The translations under genes were made by a program, and so were the position numbers. The notes beneath the pieces were generated by a model. That model made no database searches, was not told the origin of the DNA, and was given only the letters and a program-made list of their open reading frames with translations. Positions 15,628-52,798 of a stretch of DNA of 64,000 bases are shown here, one piece after another; position 1 is the first letter of the stretch, and each line of letters begins with the position of its first letter. This DNA comes from Raillietiella orientalis (taxonomy: Eukaryota). The stretch lies in the NCBI GenBank assembly GCA_036172245.1, contig JAYWIR010000053.1, positions 310,001 to 374,000 on the forward strand, written 5' to 3'.

Positions 15628-15643
15628 CCTGCCGAGTCGGTGA

Positions 15644-23035: not shown

Positions 23036-23037
23036 TC

Positions 23038-24940
23038 GAGCGGACGTGTCTTTTCGTTGCTCCTGAGTTCCATTTCCGTTGGTGCTTGTGCGTGGTGTGG
23101 GTGGAGGATTAGGCAGAAATGCCTGATACCACCACCGGTGAGGATCCGGGGGCGATGACCTCATTGCCCCCGGAGCAGATGGAGGTGGGAGCTCCCGCAT
23201 CAGTGGAGGCTCCCACCAGCACGGATGCGCCCCCGGCCCTACCCAGGGCTTGGAACGCCGGGGCTGCGACACCTACGCCAGCGGCTATGGCGGAAATGCG
23301 CGCTTACCTGGAGGAGGGGTATAACCCACCCCTTCTATATAAGGTAGGCGGTCTAAATTCTCCCGAGAACGCGCGCGCCTTCTCACAGGCGATGCGCGTT
23401 CTCGGCGTACAAAAAGAGGAGCTTCTGGCTATGTCCGTCAGAAGCGGGGGTCAATTTGTGGAAGTTATCTGCAAGGAGGCAACTCTTGCGCAGAGACTTC
23501 TGCGAACCCCCGTAAGTATGGGCAGCCGGAGGCTTCTCCCAATAACTGAAGACCGGTCGGTGATCATTCACCTGACCGGTATCACGTTCCGGATGACGAA
23601 GGAGGCCGTCCGGAACGAATTTGGAAAATTCGCAACTGTCCACGCGCTGTGGGGCAAGCCTACTCCTTTTGTCGATTACGACGGGTTGCTTGGCGGCCTG
23701 GGTGCAGCGCGAGTGACGGTTCGCGAGGGATGTGAGATTCCCCACAAACTCACCGTCAACGGTGAATCCGTTGACGTGTGGTACGTGGGGAAACCCAAGT
23801 TTTGCGGCTGCTGCATCAGCTTTGGTCACCTTAAAATGAGGTGTCCGAGCGTGCAGTGCCAGCAATGCAAACAAGCGGGGCACACCCGTCTGGTGTGCCC
23901 CCAAAACACAGTCCGCGTCGTGTCCACGAAAAACGCGAGAAAGCGCGCGGCAAAAAAGAGTAAGAAGCTGGCAGCTCGTGCTGCTGCTAAGGAGGTCACC
24001 TCCGCCACCAAGGCGAAGGCCAGCCCCGAGACTTCGGCGAAAGACGTCGAAAAGGTCGAGGGCGAGGGTCAAGAGCCAGGGTGGCAGAAGGTCGACCCCA
24101 AGAAAAACTCCCATAAGAAGGGAAAGAACGTGGCGAAACGGAGGGAAACCGCTCTGCGCCGCGATAAAATTAAAAGCTGCTGCGTCGTTGTAGAGCGGAT
24201 TCCCGCCATCGACGAATGCGGCGCTAAAGAACTCGCTGCGGCCCCTGCTCAACCCTCCGTTGACAAAGTCAACAAGGAGGGGAGCGAGGCGGCGGCGTCC
24301 GTCATCGAGCCCACGCTCGATGACGTCGCCTTCGAGCGCGCCGCGGAGGAGCTGGCTGCCTCGTTGCAGCCGGTTGCCCCCAAGGCTGGCAAGAAGGCCG
24401 TCAGGCGTCCGGCTTCCCCTCAGGAGTCGGCCACTTCCGACCCCGAGGTGAAAACCGGAAACACAGCATCCATCTCCGCGGCACCCCGCAAAAAGGCAGG
24501 ACGAAAGTCCACAATGCCCCGGAAGATCGTCTCCCCCGACGAAAGGGAAGAGATGGCTTCCGGTAGCGAGGGTGCCATGAGCGTGGGAAACTCCCGGGAC
24601 CCGTCGCCCGAGAGAATTCCACGCTCGGACACGGAGGCGATGGTGAGGATGGAGGCCGAACAGGTACCCCAGGCGCCTGAAGAGGCCTCCGTCCTCGTTC
24701 CGATGGTCCTCGAACCGATGGACCTTTCCTACACCTGCCCCGCGGCAGGTGCCGCGACGCCACTTTCCCAGCCATAATGCCGGGAATCGCCTCTCGCCGT
24801 CGTCTTCTGATCGCCTGTTGGAACGTGAACGGGCTAAGCGACGACGGCAAGAGGCGTGACGTGGCCGCCACCCTGGCATCCTTCGACCTGGTGCTGCTGC
24901 TGGAGATCCACGTGATCTTCGCAGATCAAGCCCGAGAGAT
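23038..24940 (+). mobile_element. 5' part of a B-related LINE: 5' UTR, intact ORF1, ORF2 start
   Basis: GAGCGGACGTG 5' motif; TAATG at 24775-24779; IACWNVNG; interrupted by D2. Confidence 0.88.
23119..24777 (+). CDS. Intact LINE ORF1p, 552 aa, gag-like nucleic-acid-binding protein with two CCHC zinc knuckles
   Basis: ATG start; CGCCISFGHLKMRC and CQQCKQAGHTRLVC; basic low-complexity C-terminus; stop overlaps the ORF2 ATG. Confidence 0.88.
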   Translation: MPDTTTGEDPGAMTSLPPEQMEVGAPASVEAPTSTDAPPALPRAWNAGAATPTPAAMAEMRAYLEEGYNPPLLYKVGGLNSPENARAFSQAMRVLGVQKEELLAMSVRSGGQFVEVICKEATLAQRLLRTPVSMGSRRLLPITEDRSVIIHLTGITFRMTKEAVRNEFGKFATVHALWGKPTPFVDYDGLLGGLGAARVTVREGCEIPHKLTVNGESVDVWYVGKPKFCGCCISFGHLKMRCPSVQCQQCKQAGHTRLVCPQNTVRVVSTKNARKRAAKKSKKLAARAAAKEVTSATKAKASPETSAKDVEKVEGEGQEPGWQKVDPKKNSHKKGKNVAKRRETALRRDKIKSCCVVVERIPAIDECGAKELAAAPAQPSVDKVNKEGSEAAASVIEPTLDDVAFERAAEELAASLQPVAPKAGKKAVRRPASPQESATSDPEVKTGNTASISAAPRKKAGRKSTMPRKIVSPDEREEMASGSEGAMSVGNSRDPSPERIPRSDTEAMVRMEAEQVPQAPEEASVLVPMVLEPMDLSYTCPAAGAATPLSQP

Positions 24941-27900
24941 TTCTCACCCGGTCACGCCGGGGCGTTTATTCCATATAACATAACCAAAAAAAAAAGCAAT
25001 TATACAAAATAAATCAGTTGGGAACCAAACTCCCAACCGACGACTGAACAAGAATGAAGAGAATATTGCTAACACGCAGGCCAGAGTAACAGTTTTGTGA
25101 ACAGTGTGGGGGGGCGGGAAACACAAAGAAACCAAAATAAAATAAAAACAATGAATAAGGAGGACGGGATAAGGGTCTTTGGGATCGCTCTGGAAGACAC
25201 AAAAATAAAAGCATGGGCACCGGAAATTTTACCGAGCGAACGGGGACGGGGTATGGGTGGGCGAAAGGTCGCAGGGGTCACCGGATTACGCCGTTCTCAA
25301 AGGTGTGTAAACCGGCGATGTATGCCAGTGATGTCCTCATTCACCTTGTCACGAAGATGAGACCACCTTGAAGCCTTCTCCATGAATTGAGCTGCAAGCA
25401 GGTGAGCCTCCCTTCGCTGCGATGACAACTCCAGGGCGTAGCGGGCCTTCACGATGGCGCGAACGCAACACATGGTTGCGACAATCGCGCCAACCGAAAG
25501 TCCATTTCTGCTGAAGAAGCGCCGCAGCACATCAATGGCAGTGCCTCCTTGTGGCATGATGGCCGAAGTGAGCCTTCGCCACAGTTCCCGGAGGTCACCG
25601 CAGTCCAACAAAAGGTGCGGAAAAGACTCGATCTCTCCGCACCTTAAACAGTTTGGCAAAGCAGCTCCCCCCGAAACGATGCTTCGCTGCCTATTACAGT
25701 GAAATGCACAATGTAAAAAGAGCAGCACATCTTGTTTCCACTTAAGGGGGAACACGGAGCTGTCCAAACAAACGGGGGGAACCACTATCTCTCCGGGGGG
25801 CACACTTAAATGTTCGCTCCACCGAAGCAGTCCCTTCGCCCGATTCCGAGGTGTGGCGGCTTGCACCAGCTCCTTTGTCGTCCAGCTGCCGAGGAGCTTA
25901 CTGACTCCCGCTATTTTGCAGGAGAACTCCCATTCCGCCGGTAGGCAACCGTCGTTGCTTGCCCTGAGGGCAGACAGCGCTACGGCGAGTGGTGTGGCGG
26001 CCAGACGATCCGAAAACTTCTTGTCCTGCATGACTTCGTCCATTTGATGACTGAGGAGAAGTCGCAGGCGTCGAAGATCTTCCGGGCGCGTTCCTTCGGA
26101 AGCTGCCCACGATGAAAAAGATTCCTGCCGCCATGCATTAATGTTCATGGGGCGGCAGGAGATCCAGCTTTGGGCTTCCAGCAGTGAGAACAGCTGCCTC
26201 AGCGGGAAGCCAAACCCTATTCTGGTGTGCCGAAAGTGGGGTAGCAACGAAAGCAGTCCCTCGCGTCCCGTGCAGCGCCTCAGTATAAGGCGTGCGGGTA
26301 AGCACCACGGCGTACACCACAGCTTGGCACAGAGCCGCAGCATGCGAAACTGCACCTGCAGTTCGATGCTGTTTAAGTCGAGGATGCCCAAGCCTGCATC
26401 CTGACGCGGCGCCACCAAGTCTTTAAGTCTAACACGGGATCTTGCAGCGCCCCACAACGCTTTGCGTAGAAGGCGCTGCGCCCAGACTTTGACTTCCTGG
26501 GGGGGTGGACAAACCAAAAACAGGGGGCGGAGGAGGGGGGCAACGAAGGTGTTCCAGATGCAGGCCCGTTCCGGCAAGACGAACTCGCCTCCTGAAAACG
26601 GGCTAAGTGCACGCTCTGCCTTCCGAAGGCAGTCCGACCACGCTTTTGAGACGCAGAAGTCGCCCAACGGCACGCCAAGGTACCTGAGGTACCTGCCCGT
26701 GGGGATCCCCAGGTCGATCCAGTCGGACTGCCCCTCCCACGTCGCACCAACCGGAACAACCATACACTTACTCCTGTTAACGCTCACGCCCGCACCACGA
26801 CGGATCAACTCAAAGAAATCTTCAAGCGACGCTGTCGGGGTGGACATGGGCAACAGGAGAAGCAGGTCGTCGGCATAGGCTGCCACGGCGGGCGTACCTG
26901 GACAGGAGCTCGGCAGGTTGGCTAGCGTCAGCCTGTAAGCCTCCAGCACCAATTCAAAATAGATGCTGAAGAGCAGCGGGCTTAAGCTGTCACCCTGCCT
27001 AATTCCTCGTCGTACCGGCACGCCGTACACGCGACAGCCACTGAAAACAATGGATGTAATCGCGTGGCGCCAGCAGGAGCGCAAGTACGCCAACAGGGAT
27101 GCCGGAAGACCCAGACGTTCCAAAAGCTCAAGAAGAAGCTTTTGGTTCACGCAATCGAAAGCTTTGTGCAGATCGACTGCAACCGCCAAGGCTCCCGGTG
27201 TCTCCCCTTGCGTCCCGCGCCTCCGTCGGTGAGAGATCGAAGGCGTCGCTTCCGCACGACGATCCACCGCCACACGATGCTGCAATTGCAGCCATGTGCG
27301 GATGAACAAGAGATTCGCGTCCATGGACCGCCCAGGAACAGCGTACGTCTGCTCCGAACTTACCAAGGATTCCGCGATCCTACCCATCCGCGCCACCCAA
27401 AGTTTCGAGAACAACTTGACGTCCGAATTCACTAATGTGATCGGACGCCAGTTGTTCAGTTGGCGCAAATCTCCGCCTTTCGGCAGTAGACGCACCTTCG
27501 CTGAGCGAAACGAGGCGGGGACATCGCGTGAGTCTCGCATCAGCGACGAGAGCTGGAGCACCAGAGGGATGAGCTCCGCCGCAAAACACTGAAAGAATTC
27601 CGCGGGGAGCCCATCTTCGCCTGGCGCTTTTCGTCTCTTGAGCCCCGAGATGGCCGAGGAAATTTCCTCTGCCGTGAAGGGCTCCTCAAGACGCGCGCGT
27701 TCCTCCTCGTCTACAACAGGTGCATCAATCGGCAGAAGCAGCCGGGAGAGGCTGCGTTCCGTCGGTGCCTCTGCATACAGAGAAGAGTAATAGCGCCTGA
27801 CTATCCGTCGCACGTCGGCTGGAGCCGAGCATTCCCGGTCCTGGTCGTCGAGCAGAACTGTCGCCCCTGACTGCCAGACCTGGCGCTCGGCCTTGGCCTT

Positions 27901-29558
27901 GTACTCGGATAATCGACCAACGTCCGCGCGCCTGGAAAAGGAGCGGGCCTGCAGAAAATCTCTGCTGTTGGCTACGCCCTCTCCGAAGCCGCGCGGAAGC
28001 TGGTGCAAGGGAAACCGGCAGCAGAACTCGCGGACCGATCTTTTCAGATCGTCCCAGTCCTCGAGCTCACTTATGGCAAATTCGAGGAGGTACTGGCGAA
28101 GTTGCTCAGCCGCCTCCGGGTGGCTTAGCCAGTCTGCCGGCATCCTCCAAAAACAGTTTGGAGGCCCCTTGCCTGGCGGGAGCAACTCGAACTCGAGCCT
28201 GTTGTGGTCTGAAAGCACGGACGGCACGGGACCTCTCCGACCCACTCGACAGAGCAAGTGTTCATCAAGGTATACGTGGTCCGGCGTTGCTGCCATAACA
28301 GGGTCGCTAGCGAACAAGTTGCACGCGTGCACGGACGCGCACATCTCTTCCGCTAGCAACTTTTCCCTTTTGTGGGATCTATTCTCGGAAAGCAGGTGGA
28401 CGTTAAAGTCCCCCGCAATGAGATGGGCCACAGTAGGGTGAGATCGAGTGAGCCACTGGCCTTGAAGGGTACCGAAGAACTCAATCCTTTCGGCCCATCG
28501 TCTAGCACCGCTCGGCGCGTACACGTTGGTTACGACAAGGTCGATCGAGTCGGACCACTTGAGTACAAGCTGTCCCACTCGGCCTTCCGTGTCGAAACGA
28601 ACGCTGCGCACCGCTCCCGCCAAAGTTCCTCGCACGAAGAAAGCGACGCCGCACGTACGTGCAACGCCGCACCTATAAAGTAGCGTTCCGCCCGCGCGCC
28701 GTTCGATTTCGGCAGCCTGCTCTCCGGAGATGCTGTGAATCTCCTGCAGGAGCGTCAAGTCGAAGGCGCGCAGAGCGTCAGCCACTAGTCGCCTCTTCTC
28801 CTCGTGTTGGAGCCCGTTGACGTTCCAAGACGTTACGGCAACACGACGAGAAGACGCGATTGCCCTCATCACGGCTGGGAAAGCGAGGCCGTGGTGCTCG
28901 CCTCACCCGGCGAGCGGGCAGTAAGCAGCACGACGGGCTGGAGGGCGCGGTCGCCACCGGCCTCAACTGTGCTGCACGTAATCGGGTGCTCCTCCCCGGG
29001 TGCAGAACCTGTGGGTTCCGGGGTGAGCACTCGCCGTTCCGCGGCGATTGTGTCACGCCTCAGGGCTTCAGCCCTGCGGGCGCTCGCTCCCGCGCGAGTT
29101 ACGCGTCGTTCAGCTGCGTTATCGGACTCCTTTGCGAAGTCTGATGCTCGCACGATCGACGTGCGCTTGCATCCTTCCGATTGCACCGGAATGGTCTTCT
29201 CGGCGGTCACAGAAGCGGACTTGCACGCGTTGAAGGCGTTGGCTTTTTCCTTGGAAGAGTCACAAGATGCGCGTGTTTTCGTATTCGCGCGACTGCTTTT
29301 TCCTTTGGAAGAGCTCAGGGATGGAGGTTGCGGAGCTTTCTTTGGAGATTTTTCTTTCCTCCTCTCCACAACCTTCCATTCGCCTTCGCGATTTTCGGAA
29401 GCTTCCGCGACAGTAGTTGCGGAAACCTCCAGGATTTTGGCTGCGTTCTCTGGGGTCGTTGCTTTCGCTACGCCTTTAAAAGGCGGCAACGGAGTCATAT
29501 TGTTGAAAGTTGTTCGCTGACTCGGCAGGAGATTCCTCCTCTCCTGCCGAGACAGCGA
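24941..29558 (-). mobile_element. Family D LINE copy D2 (3' portion, intact ORF2)
   Basis: Terminal hairpin and AATAAA at 24947-24970; ORF2 open; ORF1 C-terminal half open up to the A insertion site. Confidence 0.92.
25297..28869 (-). CDS. Intact LINE ORF2p (~1190 aa): APE endonuclease, reverse transcriptase, C-terminal zinc finger
   Basis: SWNVNG, LQE, NVYAP, AGDFN, PDH, SDH; WRPITL, DLHKAFD, QGDSLSP, YADD, RYLG; CLRCGEIESFPHLLLDC; ATG overlaps the ORF1 TGA. Confidence 0.93.
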   Translation of the reverse strand: MRAIASSRRVAVTSWNVNGLQHEEKRRLVADALRAFDLTLLQEIHSISGEQAAEIERRAGGTLLYRCGVARTCGVAFFVRGTLAGAVRSVRFDTEGRVGQLVLKWSDSIDLVVTNVYAPSGARRWAERIEFFGTLQGQWLTRSHPTVAHLIAGDFNVHLLSENRSHKREKLLAEEMCASVHACNLFASDPVMAATPDHVYLDEHLLCRVGRRGPVPSVLSDHNRLEFELLPPGKGPPNCFWRMPADWLSHPEAAEQLRQYLLEFAISELEDWDDLKRSVREFCCRFPLHQLPRGFGEGVANSRDFLQARSFSRRADVGRLSEYKAKAERQVWQSGATVLLDDQDRECSAPADVRRIVRRYYSSLYAEAPTERSLSRLLLPIDAPVVDEEERARLEEPFTAEEISSAISGLKRRKAPGEDGLPAEFFQCFAAELIPLVLQLSSLMRDSRDVPASFRSAKVRLLPKGGDLRQLNNWRPITLVNSDVKLFSKLWVARMGRIAESLVSSEQTYAVPGRSMDANLLFIRTWLQLQHRVAVDRRAEATPSISHRRRRGTQGETPGALAVAVDLHKAFDCVNQKLLLELLERLGLPASLLAYLRSCWRHAITSIVFSGCRVYGVPVRRGIRQGDSLSPLLFSIYFELVLEAYRLTLANLPSSCPGTPAVAAYADDLLLLLPMSTPTASLEDFFELIRRGAGVSVNRSKCMVVPVGATWEGQSDWIDLGIPTGRYLRYLGVPLGDFCVSKAWSDCLRKAERALSPFSGGEFVLPERACIWNTFVAPLLRPLFLVCPPPQEVKVWAQRLLRKALWGAARSRVRLKDLVAPRQDAGLGILDLNSIELQVQFRMLRLCAKLWCTPWCLPARLILRRCTGREGLLSLLPHFRHTRIGFGFPLRQLFSLLEAQSWISCRPMNINAWRQESFSSWAASEGTRPEDLRRLRLLLSHQMDEVMQDKKFSDRLAATPLAVALSALRASNDGCLPAEWEFSCKIAGVSKLLGSWTTKELVQAATPRNRAKGLLRWSEHLSVPPGEIVVPPVCLDSSVFPLKWKQDVLLFLHCAFHCNRQRSIVSGGAALPNCLRCGEIESFPHLLLDCGDLRELWRRLTSAIMPQGGTAIDVLRRFFSRNGLSVGAIVATMCCVRAIVKARYALELSSQRREAHLLAAQFMEKASRWSHLRDKVNEDITGIHRRFTHL

Positions 29559-32500
29559 ACTTGCTCCGCGGCTCAAAGTATTGTGCTCTTGACAAAGTAA
29601 TTAGTTAATTGTGCTCGTGTGTGCCCGGAGAGGGGAAGTTTTTAAGACGAAACTAAAAAAAAGAAGCGGCGAGGAGATCGCGGCAAAAGACCTGCAGTGG
29701 TCCCGTGCAGCAAGACGAGCTGCCAGGATGCAGGCACCTAGAAGAGGAGTGGAGAGACCGTCGTCCCCCATGGAAGCCATGGAGGTAACGTGCGGCAACG
29801 GCGAGGCGGTGGCAGGCATGCCGAGGATCGCGCCCGCGGCGGGCTTTGCTGCGCCGGCGGCGGCGATGCCAAGGGTCGTGCCCGCGGCGACGACGGCAGA
29901 GGTCGTGCCCGCGGCGGCGACGCCGAGGATCGTGCCCGCGGCGGGGAAGGTCGCGCCTGCGGCGGCGATGCCGAGGGTGCCGCCCGCGGCGGTAACGGCG
30001 GCAACGTCGAGGTTTGCGCCCGCGGCGGGGGCGTCCCAGGCGGGACCCGCGGGCGTCCACGCGGTGCAGGGAGCGACGCCATCTTGTTCGGCTGCGGCGT
30101 CGCAGCCCTTTTCTTATGCGTCATTGGCGGCTGGACAGGCGAGTGACCACCCACCTCGGAAATTCGGTAAGCCGCTTAGCGGAAAAGTACTAAAAGTGGA
30201 CCGACCAATAGTCGAAATAGGCCCCAACGTGAAGCCCATTATCTTCAAGACGTGGCTAATAAAATTAAATAACATCAGGGAGGTCTATTTGTCCCTCGAC
30301 AAGACGGACATAGACTTTGATCGCATTCAGGCGATCATTCCATCGAACAACGGATTCACAGTCTTTAAAGACTGTGAAAACATTAGAGAGCGATTGATCC
30401 AGAAGGGGATCCATATACAAGGACGGATGGTTTGTGGTATTGGCGAAATGCCATACACAACCGTCTTTTTAAACGGCATCTCCATCCTCACACCGCAACT
30501 AGCGGTGTGGAATTCCTTGGAGCAGTTTGGGGAAGTTCTGGACCTTGAATTCCAGAACTTCTCTGGAAACATATTTTCTGGCGACATGATCCCAAGATGA
30601 AGTTGAGGGAGGGAGCGGTGATCCCTGGATTGGCCGTTATTGACGAACAATCCCAGGGAGTGAATGTGCGTTACCGGCAACAACCGGTATTCTGCACCGG
30701 GTGCAAGCAGTTCTGCCACAGGGCCGGCTCTTGCCCAACGTGTCGTTGTTTCCGCTGCGGCAAAGTAGGACATCAAGTCCGAAACTGCCCGCAGCCGGAG
30801 GTGTGCTCCTTCTGCAAGAAACACGGACATGCGAAATGGAGCTGTGCGGAGTTTGCAAACTGCAGGAGGATTCGAGGTCTCTCTCCCGTGAGAGAGAGAA
30901 ACACCGAGGAGGCGGAACAGCCTCAGAAGGCAGGAAGGCCGAAGAAGGTGAAAGAAGCCGTTGCGGTATCGGAAAACGGCTTCATACAGGTAGGGAAGAA
31001 AGGAAAGAGGAGGATGCTCGTCAAGGAGCAAGAAACCCCTTTTATCCTGGAACGTGAAGAGCAAGAAGGCGAGAGGATGGAGGTAGCGCAGGAAGGCGCG
31101 GAAGAAGAAATAGCCAAAGCCACTTCGGTGTCGCAGGAGGCCCTGCAATCTACGGAGGAGTTCGCATCACTGGCTAATGAAGTCCTAGAAGTGCAGAGCG
31201 GTCACCAGCAAGAGAAAATCTTGCAGAAGATCTGCAATGCACAGGAGAACATCAACCAGGTGGTGGAGGTCGCTGAACGCGAGAAGTTAGAGGAACAGCT
31301 TCTCGACGTGAAGGCGAACTTCTGCGCCAAGGTCGAGATAGAGGCGCTATCTCGAAAATTGATCGCGCAGGCGGAACACTCTTCGGAGGAGGCGGAAATT
31401 ACCGACCTCACAGGTACCGAGAGTGACGCCGGCAGCGAGAAGCCCGCTGCTTCTTCATTGTCTGGAAGAGCACGCTCTCTCAGACAGAAGAAGCTCAGGA
31501 AGGTTAAAAAATAGGTCTTCCTTTTTTATGGTCTCTTCCCTATCGACCGCCATCAGGATGAACATCGCCTCCTGGAACGTAAACGGTGTGGTCGACCAGG
31601 GAAAAAGAAAAAGGATTGTGCAGACCGTCGCACAACAAGACATCGTGTGCCTGCAGGAGACCCGCAGGATGGGTCTGGAGATAAGCCAGCGAATGGAACG
31701 ACGATTCAACGGGCAGATGTTCGTCAACGAAGGAGAACGGTACACGAAGGGTGTGGCGGTGCTAATAAAGAACCACTTAGCCCCCACAATTCTGGAAGTG
31801 TTCTGTCCCCAACCCGTACGAATCATCGGCGTGCGACTGGCCTGGTCCGCGACTGTTCACCTTATCCTGGTGAACGTGTACGGGCCGCACAGGCTAAAAC
31901 ATCGTTGCGCGGAGGCGCTGCATGCAACACTCCGGCAAAAGGTCGCCCCTAAGGACGTCGTGATTGTTGCTGGCGATCTCAACTTCTTGGATGTGATCAT
32001 TCATTCGGAAGACGCCAGAGGAAGGACGGCGTATCGACGGCTATCCGAGGAGTTCGGACTGGTCTGGCGAACAGCAAGCCAAAAGCCAATCGATCACGTC
32101 CTGCACAGCACCGAACTTGGGAACCGCATCCAGGGGTTTCGCGACACTATGACTACGGTGTCCGATCACCCCCTGGTGCGGTTTTCCCTAAGAACGGAGA
32201 ATCCTCAGCGGAGGCAAGGCACCAGGGCGGCGCTCGTCAGCATGCCCGTCTGGTTCGAAACCAGTCCCGGAAATCAGGCTGTCCTGGAGACGATTCTGAA
32301 GGCAACAACCATCCGAAAAGTCGCCGACTGGGACAGCCTGAAACACAGAATGCACCTGTTATCAAACATGCAGTTCGGAGATAGGCGTTTGAGGCAGGAG
32401 GCGTACCGGGAGCTGAACATCCAAGATCGCTCACTCTTAAAGTACTTCGTTCAGTACGAGAGTCGGTACGTCTTTAAGAACATAAAAGGGTAAGTCGACG

Positions 32501-35180
32501 TGCTGGAGAAGAGAAATCTGGCAACAGATATCTTCTGCATTCAGAACGACGGTCAAAAGCGACAGTCGTCTGAGGACATCGTGGATGTTTTTCAAAGGCA
32601 TTACACGAAACACTTTAGGCGACAACATCTCTGTCGCTCTAGTCAACAGGCCTTTCTGAGCTACCTCGAGAAGAGGACCGACGACCTCCAGCGGAACAGA
32701 CTGGAGGAGGAGATCTCCGAAGAAGAGGTGAAGACTGCGTTTGGGCAACTACGCAAGGACGTGACAGCGGGCCCTGACAGTGTACCCATCACGCACTATC
32801 AGCGGTACCTGCACGCCTACCTGCGCTTGTTCCACCAGTTGACCCTCTGCATCCGGGAAGAAGGCAGACTACCTCAGTCCTTCTACGAGAGTCGGATGAG
32901 ATTGCTGCCGAAAGGAGGCGACTCTACCCAGATCGCCCAATGGAGGCCAATCTCGATTCTAAACTCCGATGCCAAGTGGTTGGCGAAGATCTGGTCCAAC
33001 CGCTTAGGCAAGGTCATGTCGAGACTGATCTCTCTGGTCCAGACATGTACAGTCCCAGGACGACACATGTCGGACAATGTCAAGTGTGCCCAGGCCACTG
33101 TTGGACTCAGTCGATACGTCGGCGAGAACCTGGTGCTGGTGTTCACTGACATGGAGAAAGCCTTCGACTCCATCGACCACGGGATGCTGCTGAAGGTTCT
33201 GGAGAAGCTAGGGCTCCCGGAACACTTCAGCAGCTTCGTGAGGGCGGTACTCCAGAACCAGTACTGCCGAATCAAGATCAACTGCCAGGAGACGGCAGCA
33301 ATCAGGATGGAACGAGTAGTCCGACAGGGCGACTCGCTAAGTCCGATGCTGTTCGTCATCTATATGGAGGCGTTGTCGTCCTTTATCGAGAAGAGCGGAC
33401 GACTAAGCGGGATTGCCATCGATAGCCAGCGTCTTACCCATCTGGCATACGCCGATGATCTACTCTTCTTCATCAAGGGAGAGAAAAATCAGCGTGCGTT
33501 TCTGGATGTGGTGGACCTGATCGAACAGGGCTTGTGCTTAAAAATCAATTCCCAGAAGAGCCAGCTTTTGCCCGTCGGAATACTGGATCTCTCCACTCTA
33601 ACGGGTAGTGGATTCCGTACGGTGGACACGTCCAAGTACCTGGGAGTCTACATCGGCGACGGCTCTGCGTCGAAGATGCTGTGGAAGGAATTCCTGGGGA
33701 AAACGGCCAAGGAAACAGCCAAGTACACCCGAACGGACCTTGGGATGAAGCGAAAGGCCAACATATGGAACGAAGTACTTCTTACGAAAGTGCTCTTCGG
33801 GGCGGCCTTCGCGAGGATGAACAAGGACTCTACTAGGGAGTTCGACAAGCTGCAAAGAAAAACACTCAGGGGTCACCATCGCCCAAGAGTAAGACCGAAA
33901 CCCCTGTGTCCTCCCAGGGAAGAAGGCGGTTCCGGGATGAAGTCGCTTGCACATCCCATGGAAATCATGGATACGCGACACATCCTGGACATTGCCACTC
34001 ACTGGGATGACTGGCCGTATGCGGCGCACAGGGCCTACTCGTTGTTGCTTAACAACTCGAAAGGCCTGATGACTGCGCTGCTAGGCAAAGTAGGGAAATC
34101 GATAACAATCGACACGACCTGGAGGAGGAAGCAACGGCTGGTGCGGAAGCACCAAATCAAGATCGTGCCGCGCAGCAGGGTACTCTGGCAGCACGAGTCC
34201 ATCCTGGTGATCCCTTGGTTGCTTCCTGTCCAGCCGGACACAAGAAGCTGGATCTACCAGCGGTCCAGAGTTACCCTACTGCAAATCCAGGAGTGGAGGC
34301 GAGGAGGCTACCTACATCAAACACGTATACTTCGGTATACAGAGATGATGTTAGGAAGGTTTACCCACAGGACCCGCGAAGTCTGGTTCAACCACAACGA
34401 CTTCGCATGGTCGAGGGTAACCAGAACAAAACTCGGAAGGCTTATCCAAGAAAACGCCCGTGACACCAGTGCCCTCCAGGAAGCCTGCGAACGCTACGGG
34501 AGAGAACGGTTAAACCTGTTAGCGATCGGCACGACGCTCTGGAGGAGTGGCCTTCCACCGGGCACCCAGGATGACCTCCTGAAGTTTTATCACGGAGGAA
34601 TCCAGAGTGGGTCCCGATTGCAGCACTTCACAGGAAGACGGGAAGACCGAGACTGCGCAGCATGTGGAGACGACGACACGAGACTTCACGTCTTGACGTC
34701 TCCCACACTCCTGCATGAATGGCTGATCCTGAAAAGGATCATAGGACTTACCAACAAGTCCGTTATGGAGATCCTCGCCGGGATGTTTCATGGGGATGGT
34801 AATGTTCCCTGTTACAATCCCATGGTGAGGACGACCATAGCCCTCTTCATCACCGCCATACTTGTGCGGTGGTGGAAAATGAGGAAAGCCAGAAGAGCCG
34901 CACCACCGATGGAGATCCTACAAGGGCTCTTGAAGAGGGAAATCGGCATCAGGAACTGCGGGAAGATCCACGCCTGGACGTACCGATTCATCCTGAAGAG
35001 GATCCAGGACGACGCCCGGGACCATCCAGCTGGAATTCCCCTCTGAAAAGCAGAACTCTAGTGCAACCCAAGGACCCCCAAGTGCAAAATAATTGTATTG
35101 AGTAAATGAGAGTGCGAATGTAAATTTTGTATTTTTATAGAAAAGTAAACTTACCCCACCCCTTGTGGGACTTGGGGAAA
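29559..35180 (+). mobile_element. Full-length family A LINE copy A3, near-identical to A1
   Basis: Same ORF1 frameshift (~30593) and same EN/RT TAA (32491-32493) as A1; RT portion open 32500-35046. Confidence 0.92.
32500..35046 (+). pseudogene. RT-to-C-terminus portion of A3 ORF2 (848 aa open, separated from EN by one stop)
   Basis: DMEKAFD, QGDSLSP, YADD, KYLG; no ATG start (GTG); in frame with the upstream EN ORF. Confidence 0.85.
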
Positions 35181-35363
35181 CCTGCCGAGTCGGTGAACTT
35201 GCTCCGCGGCTAGAAGTATTGTGCGCTTGACAACTTATTCAGTTCATTGTGCTCGTGTGTGCCCGGAGAGGGGAAGTTTCCAGAAGAAACAAAAAAAAGA
35301 AGCGGCGAGGACATCGCGGCAAAAGACCTGCAGTGGTCCCGTGCAGCAAGACCAGCTGCCAGG

Positions 35364-37103
35364 ATGCAGGCACCTAGAAGAGGAGTGGAGAGACCGTCGT
35401 CCCCCATGGAAGCCATGGAGGTAACGTGCGGCAACGGCGAGGCGGTGGCAGGCATGCCGAGGATCGTGCCCGCGGCGACGACGGCGGAGGTCGTGCCCGC
35501 GGCGGCGACGCCGAGGATCGTGCCCGCGGCGGGGAAGGTCGCGCCTGCGGCGGCGATGCCGAGGGTGGCGCCCGCGGCGGTAACGGCGGCAACGTCGAGG
35601 TTTGCGCCCGCGGCGGTGGCGTCCCAGGCGGGACCCGCGGGCGTCCACGCGGTGCAGGGAGCGACGCCATCTTGTTCGGCTGCGGCGTCGCAGCCCTTTT
35701 CTTATGCGTCGGTGGCGGCTGGACAGGCGAGTGTCCACCCACCTAGGAAATTCGGTAAGCCGCTTAGCGGAAAAGTACTAAAAGTGGACCGACCAATAGT
35801 CGAAATAGGCCCCAACGTGAAGCCCATTATCTTCAAGACGGAGCTAATAAGATTTAATAACATCAGGGAGGTCTATTTGTCCCTCGACAAGACGGACATA
35901 GACTTTGATCGCATTCAGGCGATCATTCCATCAAACAACGGGTTCACAGTCTTTACAGACTGTGAAAACATTAGAGAGCGATTTATCCAGAAGGGGATTA
36001 ATATACAAGGACGGATGGTTTGTGGTATTGGCGAGATGCCATACACAACCGTCTTTTTAAACGGCATCTCCATCCTCACACCGCAACTAGCGGTGTGGAA
36101 TTTCTTGGAGCAGTTTGGGGAAGTTCTGGACCTTGATTTCCAGAACTTCTCTGGAAACATATTTTCTGGCGACATGATCGCCAAGATGAAGTTGAGGGAG
36201 GGAGCGGTGATCCCTGGATTGGCCGTTATTGACGAACAATCCCAGGGAGTGAATGTGCGTTACCGGCAACAACCGGTATTCTGCACCGGGTGCAAGCAGT
36301 TCGGTCACAGGGCCGGCTCTTGCCCAACGTGTCGTTGTTTCCGCTGCGGCAAAGTAGGACATCAAGTCCGAAACTGCCCGCAGCCGGAGGTGTGCTCCTT
36401 CTGCAAGAAACACGGATATGCGGAATGGAGCTGTCCGGAGTTTGAAAACTGCAGAAGGATTCGAGGTCTCTCTCCCGTGAGAGAGAGAAACATCAAGGAG
36501 GCCGAACTGCCTCAGAAGGCAGGAAGGCAGAAAAAAGTGAAAGAAGCTGTACCGGTGTCGGCGGACGGCTTCATAGAAGTGGGAAAGAAGGGAAAGAGGA
36601 GGATGCTCGTCAAGGAGCAAGGAACTCCTCAAATCCTGGAAGCAGCAGAGCAGGAAGGCGAGAAGATGGAGGTAGCGCAGGAAGGCGCGAAGGAAGAGAG
36701 ACAGGAAGCCACTAAAGTGTCGCAGGAGGCTCTGCAGACTACGGAGGAGTTGGCAACACTGGCGGAGGAGATCATGGAGGTGCAGAGCGGTCCTCAGGAA
36801 GAGAAAATCTTGCAGAAGATCTGCACTGCACAAGAGAACATCAACCAGGTGGTGGAGGTCGCTGAACGCGAGAAGTTAGAAAAACAGCTTCTCGACGTGA
36901 AGAAGAACTTCTGCGCCAAGGTCGAGATAGAGGCGCTATCTCGAAAATTGATCGAGCGGGCCGAACACTCGACGGAGGAGGCGGAAGTAACCGACCTCAC
37001 CGGAACAGAGAGTGACGCCGGCAGCGAGAAGCCCGCTGCTTCTTCATTGTCTGGAAGAGCACGCTCTCTCAGACAGAAGAAGCTCAGGAAGGCCAAGAAA
37101 TAG
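35364..37103 (+). CDS. Intact family A ORF1p with three CCHC zinc knuckles (first ATG 35364; frame open from 35247)
   Basis: CTGCKQFGHRAGSC, CFRCGKVGHQVRNC, CSFCKKHGYAEWSC (third has H to Y); Glu-rich C-terminus. Confidence 0.85.
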   Translation: MQAPRRGVERPSSPMEAMEVTCGNGEAVAGMPRIVPAATTAEVVPAAATPRIVPAAGKVAPAAAMPRVAPAAVTAATSRFAPAAVASQAGPAGVHAVQGATPSCSAAASQPFSYASVAAGQASVHPPRKFGKPLSGKVLKVDRPIVEIGPNVKPIIFKTELIRFNNIREVYLSLDKTDIDFDRIQAIIPSNNGFTVFTDCENIRERFIQKGINIQGRMVCGIGEMPYTTVFLNGISILTPQLAVWNFLEQFGEVLDLDFQNFSGNIFSGDMIAKMKLREGAVIPGLAVIDEQSQGVNVRYRQQPVFCTGCKQFGHRAGSCPTCRCFRCGKVGHQVRNCPQPEVCSFCKKHGYAEWSCPEFENCRRIRGLSPVRERNIKEAELPQKAGRQKKVKEAVPVSADGFIEVGKKGKRRMLVKEQGTPQILEAAEQEGEKMEVAQEGAKEERQEATKVSQEALQTTEELATLAEEIMEVQSGPQEEKILQKICTAQENINQVVEVAEREKLEKQLLDVKKNFCAKVEIEALSRKLIERAEHSTEEAEVTDLTGTESDAGSEKPAASSLSGRARSLRQKKLRKAKK

Positions 37104-37116
37104 GTCTTCCCCTTTT

Positions 37117-40026
37117 ATGGCCTCTTCCCTATCGACCGTCAGGAGGCTGAACATCGCCTCCTGGAATGTAAACGGTATGGTCGACCAGGGAAAAAGAAGA
37201 AGGATTGTGCGGACCATCGCACAACAAGACATAGTGTGCCTGCAGGAGACCCACAAGATGGGTCTCGAGATTAGCCAGCAAATGAAACGGCGATTCAACG
37301 GGCAGATTTTCGTCAGCGAGGGAGAACGGAACACGCAGGGAGTGGCGGTCCTAATCAAGAACAACTTGGCCCCCACTATTCTGGAAGTGTTCTGTCCCCA
37401 ACCCGGACGAATCATCGGCGTGCGACTCGCCTGGTCCGCTACTGTTCACCTCATCCTGGTGAACGTGTACGGACCGCACAGGCTAAAACAGCGTTGTGCG
37501 GAGGCGCTGCATGCAGCACTCCGTGAAAAGGTTGCTTCCAAGGACGTCGTCATTGTTGCTGGCGATCTCAACATATTGGATGAGATCACTCACTCCGAAG
37601 ACGCCAGAAGAAGGACGGCGTATCGGCGGTTATCCGACGAGTTCGGACTGGTGTGGCAAACTGCAAGTCAGAAGCCGATCGATCACGTCCTGCACAGCAC
37701 CGAACTTGGGAATCGCCTCCAGGGTTTTCGAGACATTATGACCACGGTGTCCGATCACCCCCTGGTGCGGTTTTCCCTAAGAACGGAAAATCCTCGGCGG
37801 AGGCAAGGCACCAGGGCGGCGCTCATCAGCATGCCCGCCTGGTTCGAAACCCATATCGGACATCAGGCTGTCCTGGAGACGATTCTGAAGGCAACAACAA
37901 TCCGAAAAGTCGCCGACTGGGACAGCCTGAAACACAGGATACACCTGTTTGCGAACATGCAGTTCGGGGATAGGCGCTTGAGGCAAGAGGCGTACCGGGA
38001 GCTGAACATCCAAGATCGCTCCCTCTCAAAGTACTTCGATCAGTACGAGAGACGGTACGTCCTCAATAACATAAAAGGGGAAGTCGGCGTGCTGGAGAAG
38101 AGAAATCTGGCAACAGATATCTTCTGCATCCAGTACGACGGCCAAAAGCGACAGTCGTCTGAGGAAATCGTGGATGCCTTTCACAGGCATTACACGAAAC
38201 ACTTCAGGCGACAACAGCTGTGTCGCTCTAGTCAACAGGCCTTCTTGAGCTATCTCGAGAAGAGGACCGACGACCTCCAGCGGAACAGACTGGAGGAGGA
38301 GTTCTTCGAAGAAGAGGTGAAGACTGCGTTTGGGCAACTTCGCAAGGACGTGGCAGCGGGCCCTGACAGTGTACCCATCACGCACTATCAGCGGTACCTG
38401 CACGCCTACCTGCGCTTGTTCCACCAGTTGACCCTCTGCATCCGGGAAGAAGGCAGACTACCTCAGTCCTTCTACGAGAGTCGGATGAGATTGCTGCCGA
38501 AAGGAGGCGACTCTACCCACATCGCCCAATGGAGGCCAATCTCGATTCTAAACTCCGATGCCAAGTGGTTGGCGAAGATCTGGTCCAACCGCTTAGGCAA
38601 GATCATGTCGAGGCTGATCTCTCCGGTCCAGACATGTGCAGTCCCAGGACGACACATGTCGGACAATGTCAAGTGTGCCCAGGCCACTGTTGGACTCAGT
38701 CGATACGTCGGCGAGAACCTGGTGCTGGTGTTCACTGACATGGAGAAGGCCTTCGACTCCATCGACCATGGGATGCTGCTGAAGGTTCTGGAGAAGCTAG
38801 GGCTTCCGGAACACTTCAGCAACTTCGTGAGGGCGGTACTCCAGAACCAGTACTGCCGGATCAAGATCAACGGCCAGGAGACGGCAGCAATCAGGATGGA
38901 ACGAGGAGTCCGACAGGGCGACTCGCTAAGTCCGATGCTGTTCGTCATCTATATGGAGGCGTTGTCGTCCTTTATCGAGAAGAGCGTACGACTAAGCGGG
39001 ATTACCATCGATAGCCAGCGTCTTACCCATCTGGCATACGCCGATGATCTACTCTTCTTCATCAAGGGAGAGAAAAATCAGCGTGCGTTTCTGGATGTGG
39101 TGGACCAGATGGAACAGGGCTTGGGCTTAAAAATCAATTCCCAGAAGAGCCAGCTTTTGCCCGTCGGTATCCTGGATCTCTCCACTCTAACATGTAGTGG
39201 ATTCCGTACGGTGGACACGGCCAAGTACCTGGGAGTCTACATCGGCGACGGCTCTGCGTCGAAGCTGCTGTGGAAAGAAATCCTGGGGAAAACGGCCAAC
39301 GAAGCAGCCAAGTACACCCGAACGGACCTTGGGATGAAGCGAAAGGCCAACATATGGAACGTAGTACTCCTTCCGAAGGTGGTCTTCGGGGCGGCCTTCG
39401 CGAGGATGAACAAGGACACTACTAGGGAGTTCGACAAGCTGCAAAGAAAAACACTCTGGGGCCACTATCGTCCAAGAGTAAGACTGAAACCCCTGTGTCG
39501 TCCCAGGGAAGAAGGCGGTTCCGGGATGAAGTCGCTTGCACATTCCATGGAAATCATGGATACGCGACACATCCTGGACATGGCCACTTACTGGGATGAC
39601 TGGCCGTATGCGGCGCACCGGGCCTACGCGTTGTTGCTTAACAACTCGAAAGGCCTGATGACTGCGCTGCTAGGCAAAGTAGGGGAATGGATAACAATCG
39701 ACCCGACCTGGAGGAGGAAGCAACGGCTGGTGCGGAAGCACCAAATCAAGATCGTGCCGCGAAGCAGGGAACTCTGGCAGGACGAGTCCATCCTGGTGAT
39801 CCCTTGGTTGCTTCCTGTCCCGCCGGACACGAGTAGCTGGATCTACCAGCGGTCCAGAGTTACCCTACTGCAAATCCAGGAGTGGAGGCGAGGAGGCTAC
39901 CTACATCAAACACGTATACTTCGGTATACAGAGATGATGTTAGGAAGGTTTACCCACAGGACCCGCGAAGTGTGGTTAAACCACAACGACTTCGCATGGT
40001 CGAGGGTAACCAGAACAAACCTTTGA
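37117..40026 (+). pseudogene. Family A ORF2 (EN and RT intact) with a premature stop before the zinc finger
   Basis: ASWNVNG, LQETH, AGDLN, IDH, SDH, KAFD, RGVRQGDSLSP, YADD; TGA where A1/A3 have GGA. Confidence 0.87.
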
Positions 40027-40764
40027 AGGCTTATCCAAGAAAACGACCGTGACACCACTGCCCTCCAGGAAGCCACCGAACGCTACGGGAGTAAACGGTT
40101 CAACCTGTTAGTGATCGGCACGACGCTCTGGAGGAGTGACCTTCCGCCGGGCACCCAGGATGACCTCCTGATGTTTTATCACGGAGGAATCCAGAGTGGG
40201 TCGCGATTGCAGCACTTCACAGGAAGACGGGAAAACCGATACTGCGCAGCATGTGGAGACGACGACACGAGACTTCACGACTTGACGTTTCCCACACTGC
40301 TGCATGACTGGCTGATCCTGAAAAGGATCATAGGACTTACCAACAAGTCCGTTATGGAGATCCTCGCCAGGATGTTTCATATGGATGGTAATGTTCCCTG
40401 TTACAATCCCATGGTGAGGACGACCATAGCCCTCTTCATCACCGCCATACTTGTGGTGGAAAATGAGGAAAGCCAGGAGAGTCGCACCACCGATGGAGAT
40501 CCTACAAGGGCTCTTGAAGATGAAAATCGGCATCAGGAACTGCGGGAAGATCCACGCCTGGACGTACCGATTCATCCTGAAGAGGATCCAAGACGACGCC
40601 CGGGACTATCCAGCTGGAATTCCCCCCTGAAAAGCAGAACTCTAGTGCAACCCAAGGACCCTCAAGTGCAAAATGTTTGTATTGAGTGAATGAGAGTGCG
40701 AATGTAAATTTTGTATTTTTATAGAAAAATAAACTTACCCCACCCCTTGTGGGACTTGGGGAAA

Positions 40765-42123
40765 CCTGCCGAGTCGGCGATGGGGCGCCTGCATGCAGCG
40801 TGCTTTTGCTCGTTGCGACGCTGCTTTTTACGGCTTTCGTAGCCTTTGCAGTGGGGCCTGCGCTGCAGTAAGGCTGTCCGGTACTCGGAAGGGACAACGG
40901 AACGAGGCAAGAAGTCTTCGCACTGTTGCGATCTTCCTGTTTTCCTACCTTTCCCTCCAGGGTGTTACGGAGATTTCCTGGTTCCAGGTTCGGAAAGGTG
41001 CCTGCGAGTTCGGCAGAGAGGGAAGGCACGGCACGCGTCAAACCCTCGCGCTCCTTTTTAATTGGCTTCCCCGCCGTGACTTTCCCCTTTCGGGGCGTTG
41101 CGGGCGGGGATGCTTTCTTTTCATCCGCGGATCGCTCGTGGTTTTTTGCGAGTTTTTGCGGACGACGTTTTTTATTTGCCGCTGCGGCTTTTCGTGCAGT
41201 GGTCTCTTGAACCCGACGAATTTCCGCTGCGGCTCTTTTTATTGCAAGTACCGGGCACTTCTTGATTTCGTGCCCGGAATCTTTGCAATAGCGGCATCTT
41301 GGAGAGGGGCACTCTTTAATTCGGTGCCCATCCTTGCCGCACTGCTCGCACGCGCGAGTCTGGCCTATGAACCACAGGTGAACGACCGTGCCGTTCACCT
41401 GCAGCTGCTCAGGGACAACACGCCTGTTCGCGACGGTGATCCTCGCGGAGGCTTGTCCAATGTGGACAGAGGGGAAATCCTTTAGAGGATTTGGCCTCCT
41501 CCACAGAGCGTGCACGGTGGCGAACTTCGCCAGCACACTTACGACATCGCGGTCGGAGATTTCCGGTTCGATGTCGCACAATTGAACGACAAAAGAGTCG
41601 TCCATCGCGGTAGGTATGACTTCCTTGCCATTGATGGTCAACGGCGTACGGAGAAGGCGCTGCACAAGTGCTGCGTTCTTGCACCGAATCTTCGTATATT
41701 CCATCCTGCCAGCAGGCATTATGGCAAGGAGTTCCTCCTCGCGAACGCCTATCCGGACGAGCTCATCATTGAGCTCACGACCGATTCTCCCGTTAAGTGG
41801 CCCACTGATTTTATAACGGAGTGCAGGCATGTATCCTGATGACACATATGCCTGGAACTCCGCATCGCAGGGTCCTGGTCTTTGGGAGGTAACGACGGCG
41901 TAACTCCTCACCGGGGGCGAGGAAACCATTACGGAGGATGCGGCCACTTCAAGTGCAGCTGAAGTGCATCCAGTGGCTTGCTGCTCCACACTATCCTGTG
42001 TACTGGCCATGTTGCACTATGCTACTTGGCAGATTGCACAGGAACACACAAGTGCGAGCAAAAACGCAGGCACAAAGTTGCCCGATCGTTGGCGCGGAAA
42101 GACGCGGAAACACGTCTGCACTG
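40765..42123 (-). mobile_element. 5' part of a family D LINE: 5' UTR and ORF1 N-terminal half (ATG 42010)
   Basis: CEQCGKDGHRIKEC and CRYCKDSGHEIKKC; ends at SPTRQ, matching SLSRQ where D1/D2 ORF1 resumes; GCAGACGTGTTTCC 5' motif. Assignment to D is inferred from the shared 16-mer. Confidence 0.8.
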
Positions 42124-42125
42124 TA

Positions 42126-43816
42126 CGAGCGCGGGAGATCGAACGGATCTCGGGTGGGCGGCTGTTGTTGCGTTGCGGCACCGCGAAATCAAACGGTGTC
42201 GCCTTCCTGCTTCGGCCAGCCATCGAGACCGCAATAAAGGACGTTCGGTTCGATGACGCAGGTCGCGTCGGTCAGCTGACTCTCAGCTGGTCCGACTCTA
42301 TCGACCTGGTCGTCACCAACCTATACGCTCCTAGCGGAAATAACGCGTTGAAGGCGAAGGCAAGAAGGGAATTCTACCTTGCCCTGAGACGCCACTGGCT
42401 GACCGATGCAGGAGTTCGCAAAGCGCACCTGATCGCAGGTGATTTCAACCTGCGCCTGCTTTCAGGTGCGCCGGATACACTGAACGACCGCGTCAACGAG
42501 TTGTGCGCAGAAATGAACACGCGCAACTTGTTGGCCGGGGACACGGCCATGGAAAGCAGCATCGATCACGTGTACCTTGATCAGCACCTATGCTCTCGGG
42601 TGGGCAGGCGCGGCAAGGTACCATCCGAGCTGTCGGACCATGGTCGGATCATGTTCGAAGTGTGTCCGCGCGACAGGGGCCCCCCCTCGTCAGCGTGGCG
42701 TCTGCCAGGGGACTGGCTGAAGTTTCCCGACGCGGCGGAGCACCTCCGCGCGTTTATTCGGAGCTTCAGGATGCAGACACTTGAGGACTGGGACCGCTTC
42801 AAGCGGTCGGTCCAGGAGTTCTGCGATCAGTTCCCCCTGCATCGCCTACCTGCGAGTTTTGGGGAGGGGCCGCGTAACGAAAGGTGCTATCTTCAGGCCC
42901 GACGTTACGCGAGAACCCCCGACATGCGCAGGTTAGCAGAGTACCGAGCGGGAGCCGAGAGGCAAGCCTGGCAATCCGGATCGGCCAGCTTGCTGGACGA
43001 CCAGGGCCGGGAGCACTCGGTTCCCGCTCAGAAACGCGGGATAGTGAGGAAATTTTACTGCTCCCTGTACGCCAGGGCGCCTCCGGAGCGAGACGTCTCA
43101 CGACTTCTGCTTCCGGAAGGTGCTTCAGCGATCGGGGAGGAGGAGAAAAGAAGCCTCGACGAGCCTTTCACGATGGACGAGATCCTCTCGGCCATCGGAA
43201 AGCTCAGGAGGTGGAAGGCTCCAGGGGAGGACGGCCTGCCTGTAAAGTTTTACCAAACTTTCGCGGCTGAGCTTACTCCCCTGGTACATCAGCTCACCTT
43301 GCTGATCCGTGAAACAGGTGACGTTCCCACCTCGTTTCGTTCAGCAAAGGTGCGGCTCCTCCCGAAGGGAGGAGACCTAAGGAGCATGAACAACTGGCGT
43401 CCCATCACAATAGTGAATGCGGACGCCAAGTTGATACCCAAGATGTGGGCAGAGCGTCTGGGACGGGTTGCCAACATCTTCATCAGCCCGGAACAGACTT
43501 ATGCTGTTCCCGGGCGGAGCATGGAGGCGAACCTGTTCCACGCTTCCACATGGTTAGAGCTCCAACAAGGAAGGGGCTTATTGAGCAGCCGGAATTCCGG
43601 TGCGTCCGTTGGCGGGAGACGGAACGGTCGGGTGGGGAAGGGAGCCCTTGCGGTCGCTGTCGACTTGCGTAAAGCATTCGACAGCGTCGACCAGAATCTC
43701 CTGCTGGAGCTTCTGGAACGCTTGGGATTCCCGGCCTCTTTGTTGGCCTACCTGCGCTCCAGCTGGCGCGACGCGCTCATTAATGTTCTTTTCAGCGGGC
43801 AAACCGTGCACGGAGT
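42126..43816 (+). pseudogene. Family B ORF2 fragment (EN from AREIER to RT just before QGD), open frame
   Basis: NLYAP, AGDFN, SDH, WRPITIVN, DLRKAFD; most similar to 49240-50920. Confidence 0.85.
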
Positions 43817-52794: not shown

Positions 52795-52798
52795 AGCG

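Follow-up and report, generated by a model that had tools for sequence, protein, structure and literature searches.

The window analysed here is a stretch of 64,000 nucleotides (nt) from Raillietiella orientalis (contig JAYWIR010000053.1, positions 310,001 to 374,000; G000:C53:310001-374000 in our labels; assembly size 210 Mb). It consists throughout of sequence from long interspersed elements (LINEs) with two open reading frames (ORFs), at 57% GC, and the HSC70 of the same genome is 88-91% identical to animal proteins, arthropod and mollusc ones among them, indicating an animal host. Within it lies a four-level nest of two-ORF LINEs encoding an endonuclease (EN) and a reverse transcriptase (RT), in which an element of the C group is interrupted by B2, B2 by D and D by a pair of A elements (C > B2 > D > A-A); each layer is antisense to its host and sits at a fixed base within the host coding sequence. 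Family letters besides A, B and D (e.g., C, K6, F8, G and H) are labels coined in this analysis. The parts of the nest, followed by a sister nest in the same window, are given below (aa, amino acids).

22111..23037, minus strand: outer host, a C-group LINE, ORF2 linker to RT (aa ~277-583, D numbering); 90% identical to an intact C copy
23038..24940, plus strand: 5' part of B2, with ORF1 at 23119-24777, a TAATG stop/start overlap and ORF2 up to ...DQAREI; 96.2% identical to an intact B2
24927..24940, plus strand: 14-nt target copy, host-type, at the 3' junction of D
24941..29542, minus strand: 3' part of D, with the end of ORF1, a TGATG overlap and the open ORF2
29508..29562, no strand: fold-back hairpin at the D/A junction, 15 nt gained relative to empty D; z-score -7.5
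29543..35180, plus strand: first A copy (A3), including its 5' target copy; 99.5% identical to the A at 9990
35181..40764, plus strand: second A copy (A4), behind a target copy; nearest genomic relative 99.3% identical
40765..42125, minus strand: target copy CCTGCCGAGTCGG, then the 5' part of D (ORF1 Met at 42010)
42126..42139, minus strand: target-like 14-mer at the 5' end of D, host-type at position 7 and element-type at positions 9 and 13
42140..43819, plus strand: continuation of B2, rest of EN to RT aa ~632; 95.6% identical to an intact B2, ending at a 3-nt microhomology
43817..44144, minus strand: inverted C-group endonuclease piece, the nest ending here at a rearrangement breakpoint; 93.6% identical to an intact C, reversed
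3486..20967, plus strand: sister nest B1a > D > A-A, cut at 20967

The C-group host at 22111..23037 is interrupted by B2 at the codons TLRNL-QDW (23038) and by the 3' end of a B1 element at KAFD (22110). The ORF2 of D, intact as initially annotated, is open from Met 28869 to the stop at 25297 and encodes an apurinic/apyrimidinic-type (APE) EN, an RT and a C-terminal CCHC-like motif; the zinc knuckle of its ORF1 scores below the Pfam cut-off, and its tail consists of AATAAA and a short GC-rich inverted repeat without poly(A). A3 has two frameshifts in ORF1 and one in-frame stop in ORF2, and A4 has an open ORF1 with a zinc knuckle and an ORF2 with EN and RT carrying a single in-frame stop at 40024. 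The initial annotation had described a three-level nest with an A-A dimer; the pair is present, but it is a tandem around a rebuilt target copy and not an extra nested level.

Excision in silico bears out the proposed arrangement of B2 (+), D (-) and A-A (+), as both frames reopen and uninterrupted genomic copies match both halves. Removal of the A pair (29543-40764 or 29559-40780) joins D ORF1 in frame at SPTRQ or SLSRQ and leaves a D of 5,965 bp, and removal of D gives a stop-free stretch of 624 aa of B2 ORF2 reading ...DQAREI-ERISGGRL. The joined D ORF1 is 639 aa long from its Met, against 634 aa with the same end residues in two intact copies among 11 empty D loci; the five extra codons stem from the private 15-nt hairpin gain, which among 30 loci recurs only at the 9990 junction of the sister nest. 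The ORF1 N-terminus of uninterrupted D copies resembles that encoded at 40765-42010, and of the 30 best D matches in the genome 14 are empty, running contiguously across the A site, and 16 carry A there. Empty B2 sites at two other loci (C116, L028) are 95-97% identical to both flanks.

The order host > B > D > A therefore holds, but its outermost step runs via the C-group linker at 23038 and not via the KAFD junction at 3478, which had been taken for the fourth level. That junction was rejected as the outer level, being the 5' end of B1a (~70% identical to B2), with another host, in the other nest. The fragment at 42126 had also been thought closer to the host at 3483-5454; its B part (42140-43816) matches uninterrupted B2 at 95.6% identity, as against 80-81% for three B1 copies. 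Copy age per layer, which the initial annotation had put forward as a check, gives no order for B2, D and A, whose nearest relatives are 98.1%, 98.5-98.7% and 99.3% identical (medians 96.4, 97.9 and 96.5%); C alone is clearly older (94.5 and 88.2%).

Insertion sites across the genome

For D, B1, B2 and A, sites were counted in the 30 best-scoring genomic copies of each family. The D 3' ends lie in B2 (12) or in B1/B1a (11), all at one EN codon, with five in tandem and two elsewhere. B2 5' ends are found at TLRNL-QDW in 26 copies, in tandem in three and at a contig end in one, and B1 3' ends at KAFD in 22 (two of these short, at contig ends), in tandem in two and elsewhere, with a TCG-like core, in six. 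A ends in D in 14 cases, is followed by another A in 10, and ends in another ORF1 in four and in unrelated DNA in two. Exact-match counts over the whole genome, which are lower bounds, gave 97 D-type tails, 56 of them with the strict junction, and 140 empty B sites. The 16-mer targeted by A has 94 exact genomic matches versus none for its reversed control, thus excluding chance. The nest is one case of genome-wide, family-specific targeting rather than a local stack.

The D copies at one codon point to independent insertions. Where the 5' end of D is present (27 of the 30 loci; three are without it), D copies are 97.60% identical within host clusters (82 pairs) and 97.56% between them (269 pairs), and the flanking B1 and B2 are 73% alike; nearly identical D in hosts so different would therefore have been inserted independently rather than copied as composites. 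B1 and B2 each occur with D alone, with D filled by A, and empty. The stack of C, B2 and D without A is also found on three other contigs (C136, C87, C43), and B2 with D and A on C46. The state of the A site in D changes seven times on the D tree, a number as low in 49 of 500 shuffles, which gives no significant clustering of D by fill state. The insertion base is also shared by A copies truncated at the 5' end and by an A subfamily whose 3' end differs.

Reciprocal insertion between B2 and the C group is shown at group level. B2 enters C-group hosts at aa 277, and C-group 3' ends lie in B2 at aa 307 on four contigs (C46, C76, C74, C26); C46 also holds a single contiguous nest in which a C-group element contains B2 and B2 a C-group element. 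In addition, F8, which is 95.5% identical to a C46 host of B2, is inserted at aa 498 of a copy 92% identical to B2. The cycle is stated for the group because the C group spans subfamilies 80-95% alike. B1 is found in a host 90% identical to K6, and K6-type ends are found in B ORF1s. In an RT tree with 13 relatives, a single clade (100/100) unites D, K6, B1, B2 and C, and A is sister to it (96/96); within this clade D+K6, B1+B2 and C are three sister lineages (each at least 96/88), A standing outside, and most targeting runs between these lineages.

Over all the DNA retrieved, 3' ends occur in 96 distinct contexts, which fall into 18 groups. Other fixed sites are LPxGFG (aa ~307), VNxDxKL (aa ~498) and a site in ORF1, all three antisense, and, in sense orientation, AGDFN (aa ~166). 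At least eight different sites are in use among sister families 50-70% alike, B1 occurs at KAFD in at least three host lineages, and a core of 3-5 nt is retained at the 3' junction of off-target copies. The homologous site within each family itself differs from that family's target, but no more than the family identity of 70-75% predicts, giving no sign of self-avoidance.

Several other loci were observed alongside these. The window contains a full-length B1 (minus strand) at the KAFD motif (47281-52798), with an empty D site at ~50920, and a second B1-like 3' end at KAFD at 58182. The LPQGFG codons (aa ~307) of family G are the end point of another family both at 54908 in the window (a 3' end) and at locus L186 on C136. 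Family H, related to D, is inserted in sense at the AGDFN codons of C-group hosts (L181:5347, and L182 with a 3' end near 8696), the only sense-oriented site seen. Two A copies on C68 (L068, L073) end at the same non-element sequence, starting CCTTGAATTGGGG. Three A 5' junction motifs spaced 5.64 kb apart at G000:C33:438130-449419 are probably an A trimer, and C-like tails at L259, L260 and L257 end antisense near aa 1070 of C-type hosts, a possible further fixed site. Two terminal features are common to all clade members (window 23044, 42116, 52785, 46428, 3491): the motif ACGTGT(T/C)T, 6-12 nt in from the 5' end, and a tail made up of AATAAA and CCGG...CCGGG; promoter and RT-binding signals are possible roles for them.

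Imperfect duplications, endonucleases and a proposed mechanism

Target copies of 13-16 nt lie on both sides of the insertions, and they are imperfect, as the initial annotation had stated, differing at 3/14 bases for D and 2-3/16 for A. The 5' copy is a mosaic. The 27 D 5' copies without exception terminate in the element-type base at position 13, a position at which the host-side copies have a different base; in the 11 D hosted by B2, the 5' 14-mer is element-type at position 7 in nine, at position 9 in 10 and at position 13 in all, and three of them carry the B1-type base at position 6 though B2 sequence directly adjoins. For A, upstream variants occur in 8 of 12 full-length junctions outside the window (two window copies and two truncated copies omitted) versus 0 of 14 empty D of like background (Fisher p 3e-4). 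In most copies the mismatched base at position 14 is the first base of A itself. One A, inserted in a host other than D, is preceded by a 5' copy that is D-like where the empty host differs.

These patterns are best explained by a target-like leader borne by the element, since the 5' copy holds the element's own bases whatever the host; such a leader would account for imperfect duplications without recombination. On this inference, the RNAs of D and A would begin with a copy of the target able to pair with it once it is cleaved, as proposed for R1 of the melanogaster type. Off-target 5' ends were present in 1/6 A, 0/6 B1 and 0/2 D stretches, so that the off-target test of the leader consists of one locus. 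The hairpin at 29508-29562 would best be read as cDNA (complementary DNA) folding back on a small palindrome during 5' integration; hairpins in the 3' tails are not notable (z -0.4 to -1.5).

PF03372 and PF00078 score above cut-off in the ORF2 of D, B2 and A, giving an N-terminal APE EN followed by the RT, and the nearest Atlas clusters are proteins with RVT_1, Exo_endo_phos and zf-RVT. The best solved-structure match of D ORF2 is human L1 ORF2p (E 7e-45), compared with E 2e-13 for R2. In the alignment, the catalytic EN residues N, E, Y, D-N, D and D-H vary little or not at all, and the span from GDFN to DH comprises 42-46 residues in seven nest ENs versus 55-77 in 24 public relatives; against the L1/Tx1L (LTx) chimera, D has 7 residues aligned to 25. 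By alignment, ~20 residues covering the betaB6-betaB5 hairpin thus appear to be missing from the nest ENs, in contrast to the ENs of Tx1L, L1, R1 and TRAS, in which it forms a protruding loop. That hairpin is described as crucial for target choice in the L1/Tx1L EN, and in R1Bm an extension of the betaB4-alphaB2 loop is the predicted target reader (PMC1950540). The family-variable loop after Y-A-P in the nest ENs may correspond to this R1Bm loop.

Our preferred reading, to which we assign a probability of about 0.8, is that the nest was built by successive sequence-specific retrotranspositions, each element bringing a short target copy on its 5' end. The ORF2 protein of each family would nick its own site and prime reverse transcription there, and the top strand would be cut ~13-16 nt further on. 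The cDNA would end in a leader inherited from the earlier target (14 nt in D, ~25-35 nt in A) and, because this leader pairs with the new target, the 5' 'duplication' would be part element and part host. As the site is rebuilt after insertion, a second copy could enter and give tandems (A-A, D-D, B-B). In a later step, ~150 nt of D and the whole first A would have been replaced, by conversion or by unequal exchange, with sequence of the sister nest, which lies 19.5 kb away; B2 would have been cut at 43819 by a rearrangement.

Recombination and rival explanations

Between the A copies at 9990 and 29543, identity is 99.5% and the frameshifts are the same, while the D halves of the two nests are ~96% and the second A copies 89% alike. 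The shared tract of 5.5 kb (~9835-15385 vs ~29388-34938) extends from ~150 nt inside D to 240-290 nt before the A 3' end. Some 20 differences are spread along it, and it breaks off sharply at either end, once within D and once within A. Copying from the sister nest into this one is suggested by the D variants private to the tract and by the greater divergence of D in the sister nest. A3 is unlikely to be a retrotransposed copy of the first A of the sister nest (A1), as the tract stops ~240-290 nt short of the A 3' end.

Recombination between sister nests produced the breaks at 20967 and 43819. At 20967-20969 the second A of the sister nest runs directly into the final 1.1 kb of a B1 copy unlike the B1a 5' part at 3486; the hosts flanking this break (1400-3478 and 22111-23037) belong to families ~75% alike, and it is a deletion or exchange breakpoint. 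B2 ends at 43819 against the inverted C-group piece, and its last 1.9 kb was not found in the 84 kb of C53 searched. The C-group endonuclease pieces that follow, inverted (43817-44144) and direct (44124-44705), overlap by 100 nt and switch at a ~25-nt internal inverted similarity, resembling a twin-primed 5' inversion.

Given this recombination and the differences between the target copies, the imperfect duplications could instead reflect nest halves derived from different sister copies and joined by recombination, as the initial annotation had cautioned. Both B halves match one intact B2 (95.6-96.2%), however, and not two sister copies, and the same mismatches occur in simple insertions on five other contigs (C116, C136, C87, C43, C46). 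The switch from element-type to host-type lies inside the 14-mer, insertions with matched flanks also lack perfect duplications, and the A mismatch at position 14 is, as said, mostly A's own base. We regard this as the least probable of the alternatives: recombination is not needed for the imperfect duplications, although it did act on the first A with its junction and at the two breaks. Each junction might also have arisen once or a few times, with whole nests then multiplied by segmental duplication and gene conversion. The 5.5-kb tract, with its private hairpin and frameshifts common to both window nests, fits such multiplication, as do chimeric flanks at C46, C18 and 20967 and the identical truncation point of L054 and L056. 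Yet the near-identical D at the same codon of hosts 73% alike largely refutes it, and the occurrence of all combinations of B1, B2, D and A, the several A lineages and truncations sharing one base and the several host lineages with B1 at KAFD leave it very unlikely. That the 99.5% tract and some of the tandems are assembly errors is about equally improbable: the region is all repeats and many contigs break in it, but the scattered differences and sharp tract ends in D and A, together with tandems on many contigs, speak against error, and the site-reuse evidence would be unaffected even so.

An alternative that we hold to be unlikely, though it is stronger than those above, is that RNA largely sets the target, a loose nick being used only where the element ends pair with the target, so that the inherited leader would be a heritable address. 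The short GDFN-DH span of the nest ENs, the variety of sites among sister families, the leaders borne by elements and the 3' core kept by off-target copies all favour RNA addressing. On the other hand, the leader acts at the 5' junction, after site choice, and the loop after Y-A-P, which differs by family, offers a protein candidate. Donor-type bases at 3' junctions, the mark of read-through priming, were not found, the only candidate (C94) turning out to be a B1 host. An HDV-like ribozyme at the 5' end, as in R2-like 5' processing, was looked for as well: no Rfam match came near the gathering score in 20000-48000, and a crude descriptor picked out none at five ends, these searches having low sensitivity. 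A wider and equally doubtful proposal would be a self-contained community of sister LINEs that use each other's catalytic codons, with reciprocal attack (B2/C, B1/K6), hairpin-less ENs and target choice set partly by a heritable RNA address from the previous host, which would amount to RNA-programmed retargeting in a eukaryotic LINE.

A number of observations weigh against the successive, targeted insertions that we favour. Sampling by best score biases the counts towards young, clustered copies; 41 of the 97 D-type tails lack the strict junction, and of 18 non-matching tails, a chosen subset in which dispersed ones were favoured, nine lie in non-element DNA, six elsewhere in elements and three at the homologous EN codon. 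One of these 18 reaches 90% identity to D; the other 17, below that value, are sister or old copies. Resolution of the D tree is low, with good support for 2 of its 24 branches. The 'A-leader' variant also occurs in a diverged D that is empty (L028), the A in a non-D host is a single locus with flanks from two different families, and the first A of this nest is copied rather than freshly inserted sequence. The hairpin held to set specificity in L1/Tx1L appears to be missing from the nest ENs and so would not explain theirs.

Relation to known elements and significance

The nest LINEs belong to the L1 group, with an APE EN and RT, an RT nearer to L1 than to R2, and target duplications within ~7-20 nt. 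A poly(A) tail is a feature of mammalian-type L1; here the 3' ends are without one, AATAAA being followed by a short inverted repeat and 4-6 nt that abut the target. Relative to human L1 as described in PMC1950540, the nest LINEs agree in the best structure match and the conserved catalytic residues and differ in the hairpin that appears to be missing and in the tail. They also differ in having an ORF1 zinc knuckle and ORFs that overlap by a stop/start pentamer in D and B2.

By analogy, the nest LINEs appear to work like target-specific Tx1/R1 elements. In the Tx1 clade, according to PMC4494074, Tx1L targets the piggyBac-type Tx1D, the crocodilian Tx1-Mar targets Mariner-N4_AMi, Tx1-8_Crp and Tx1-4_AMi long terminal repeat (LTR) elements and Tx1-9_AMi Harbingers, with further targets listed in the supplements. 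Like the nest LINEs, these are APE-RT LINEs of animals that target another mobile element, and tandems around a target duplication are described there as well (SINEU-3; PMC4494074). The nest differs in that the targets are coding motifs of close LINE relatives, mostly hit antisense, with a separate site for each of several sister families and B2 and C in each other. An animal host and fixed target sites are Tx1 traits present here; the relatives in the RT tree are mostly without names, and none is a named Tx1 reference. In melanogaster-type R1, transcripts are described as carrying 6-27 nt of target sequence from upstream, which anneals at the 5' junction (PMC2718515). The 28S-specific LINEs R2 and R1A (the latter of the Drosophila melanogaster group) resemble the nest LINEs in having a fixed target base, and ancestral R1 in its 14-bp duplication (PMC2718515); target-carrying transcripts would be a further likeness if D and A have the leader proposed above. 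Their target is ribosomal RNA (rRNA), whereas the copy that the nest LINEs would carry shares bases with the duplication and derives from a different LINE family, hence the mismatches where the host family differs. The DNA junctions of D and A fit such 5' integration.

Two further systems resemble the nest in other respects. Zepp of Coccomyxa subellipsoidea also forms GC-rich islands of nested LINEs, but as one cluster per chromosome made of copies of one element (PMC3446292), whereas here many families sit at fixed bases in others. Contigs C13, C26 and C33 each have matches in two regions more than 1.4 Mb apart (on contigs, not chromosomes), unlike the single Zepp cluster per chromosome. On C13 (G000:C13 ~2.444-2.586 Mb), a contig of 4.5 Mb, a single internal island of ~140 kb is bordered on the right by AT-rich DNA, and the edges of this cluster showed no simple outermost target; on C11, C18 and C1, islands are situated at the ends of the contigs. 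The nested group II introns of Methanosarcina acetivorans home into relatives, up to five deep, balanced by recombination and with a lasting landing site, as described in PMC4424553; they are prokaryotic and self-splicing and read their target by RNA-DNA pairing, while the nest consists of eukaryotic LINEs with no splicing implied.

A literature search, with most subscription papers, Repbase reports and supplements outside its scope, turned up no description of LINE families whose targets are one another's coding motifs, and such mutual targeting is apparently undescribed. The known havens of target-specific LINEs are rRNA, small nuclear RNA, microsatellites, DNA transposons and LTR elements. 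The nest LINEs, a young radiation, use conserved coding motifs of their own relatives; these, as targets, never run out and harm no host gene, and each hit breaks a competitor's gene. An element-borne target copy would account for the imperfect duplications of such nests without recombination. Close relatives with different exact targets, hundreds of young copies and both filled and empty sites make up a natural mutant series for changes in APE endonuclease specificity, of added value as these endonucleases appear to be without the loop usually credited with it.

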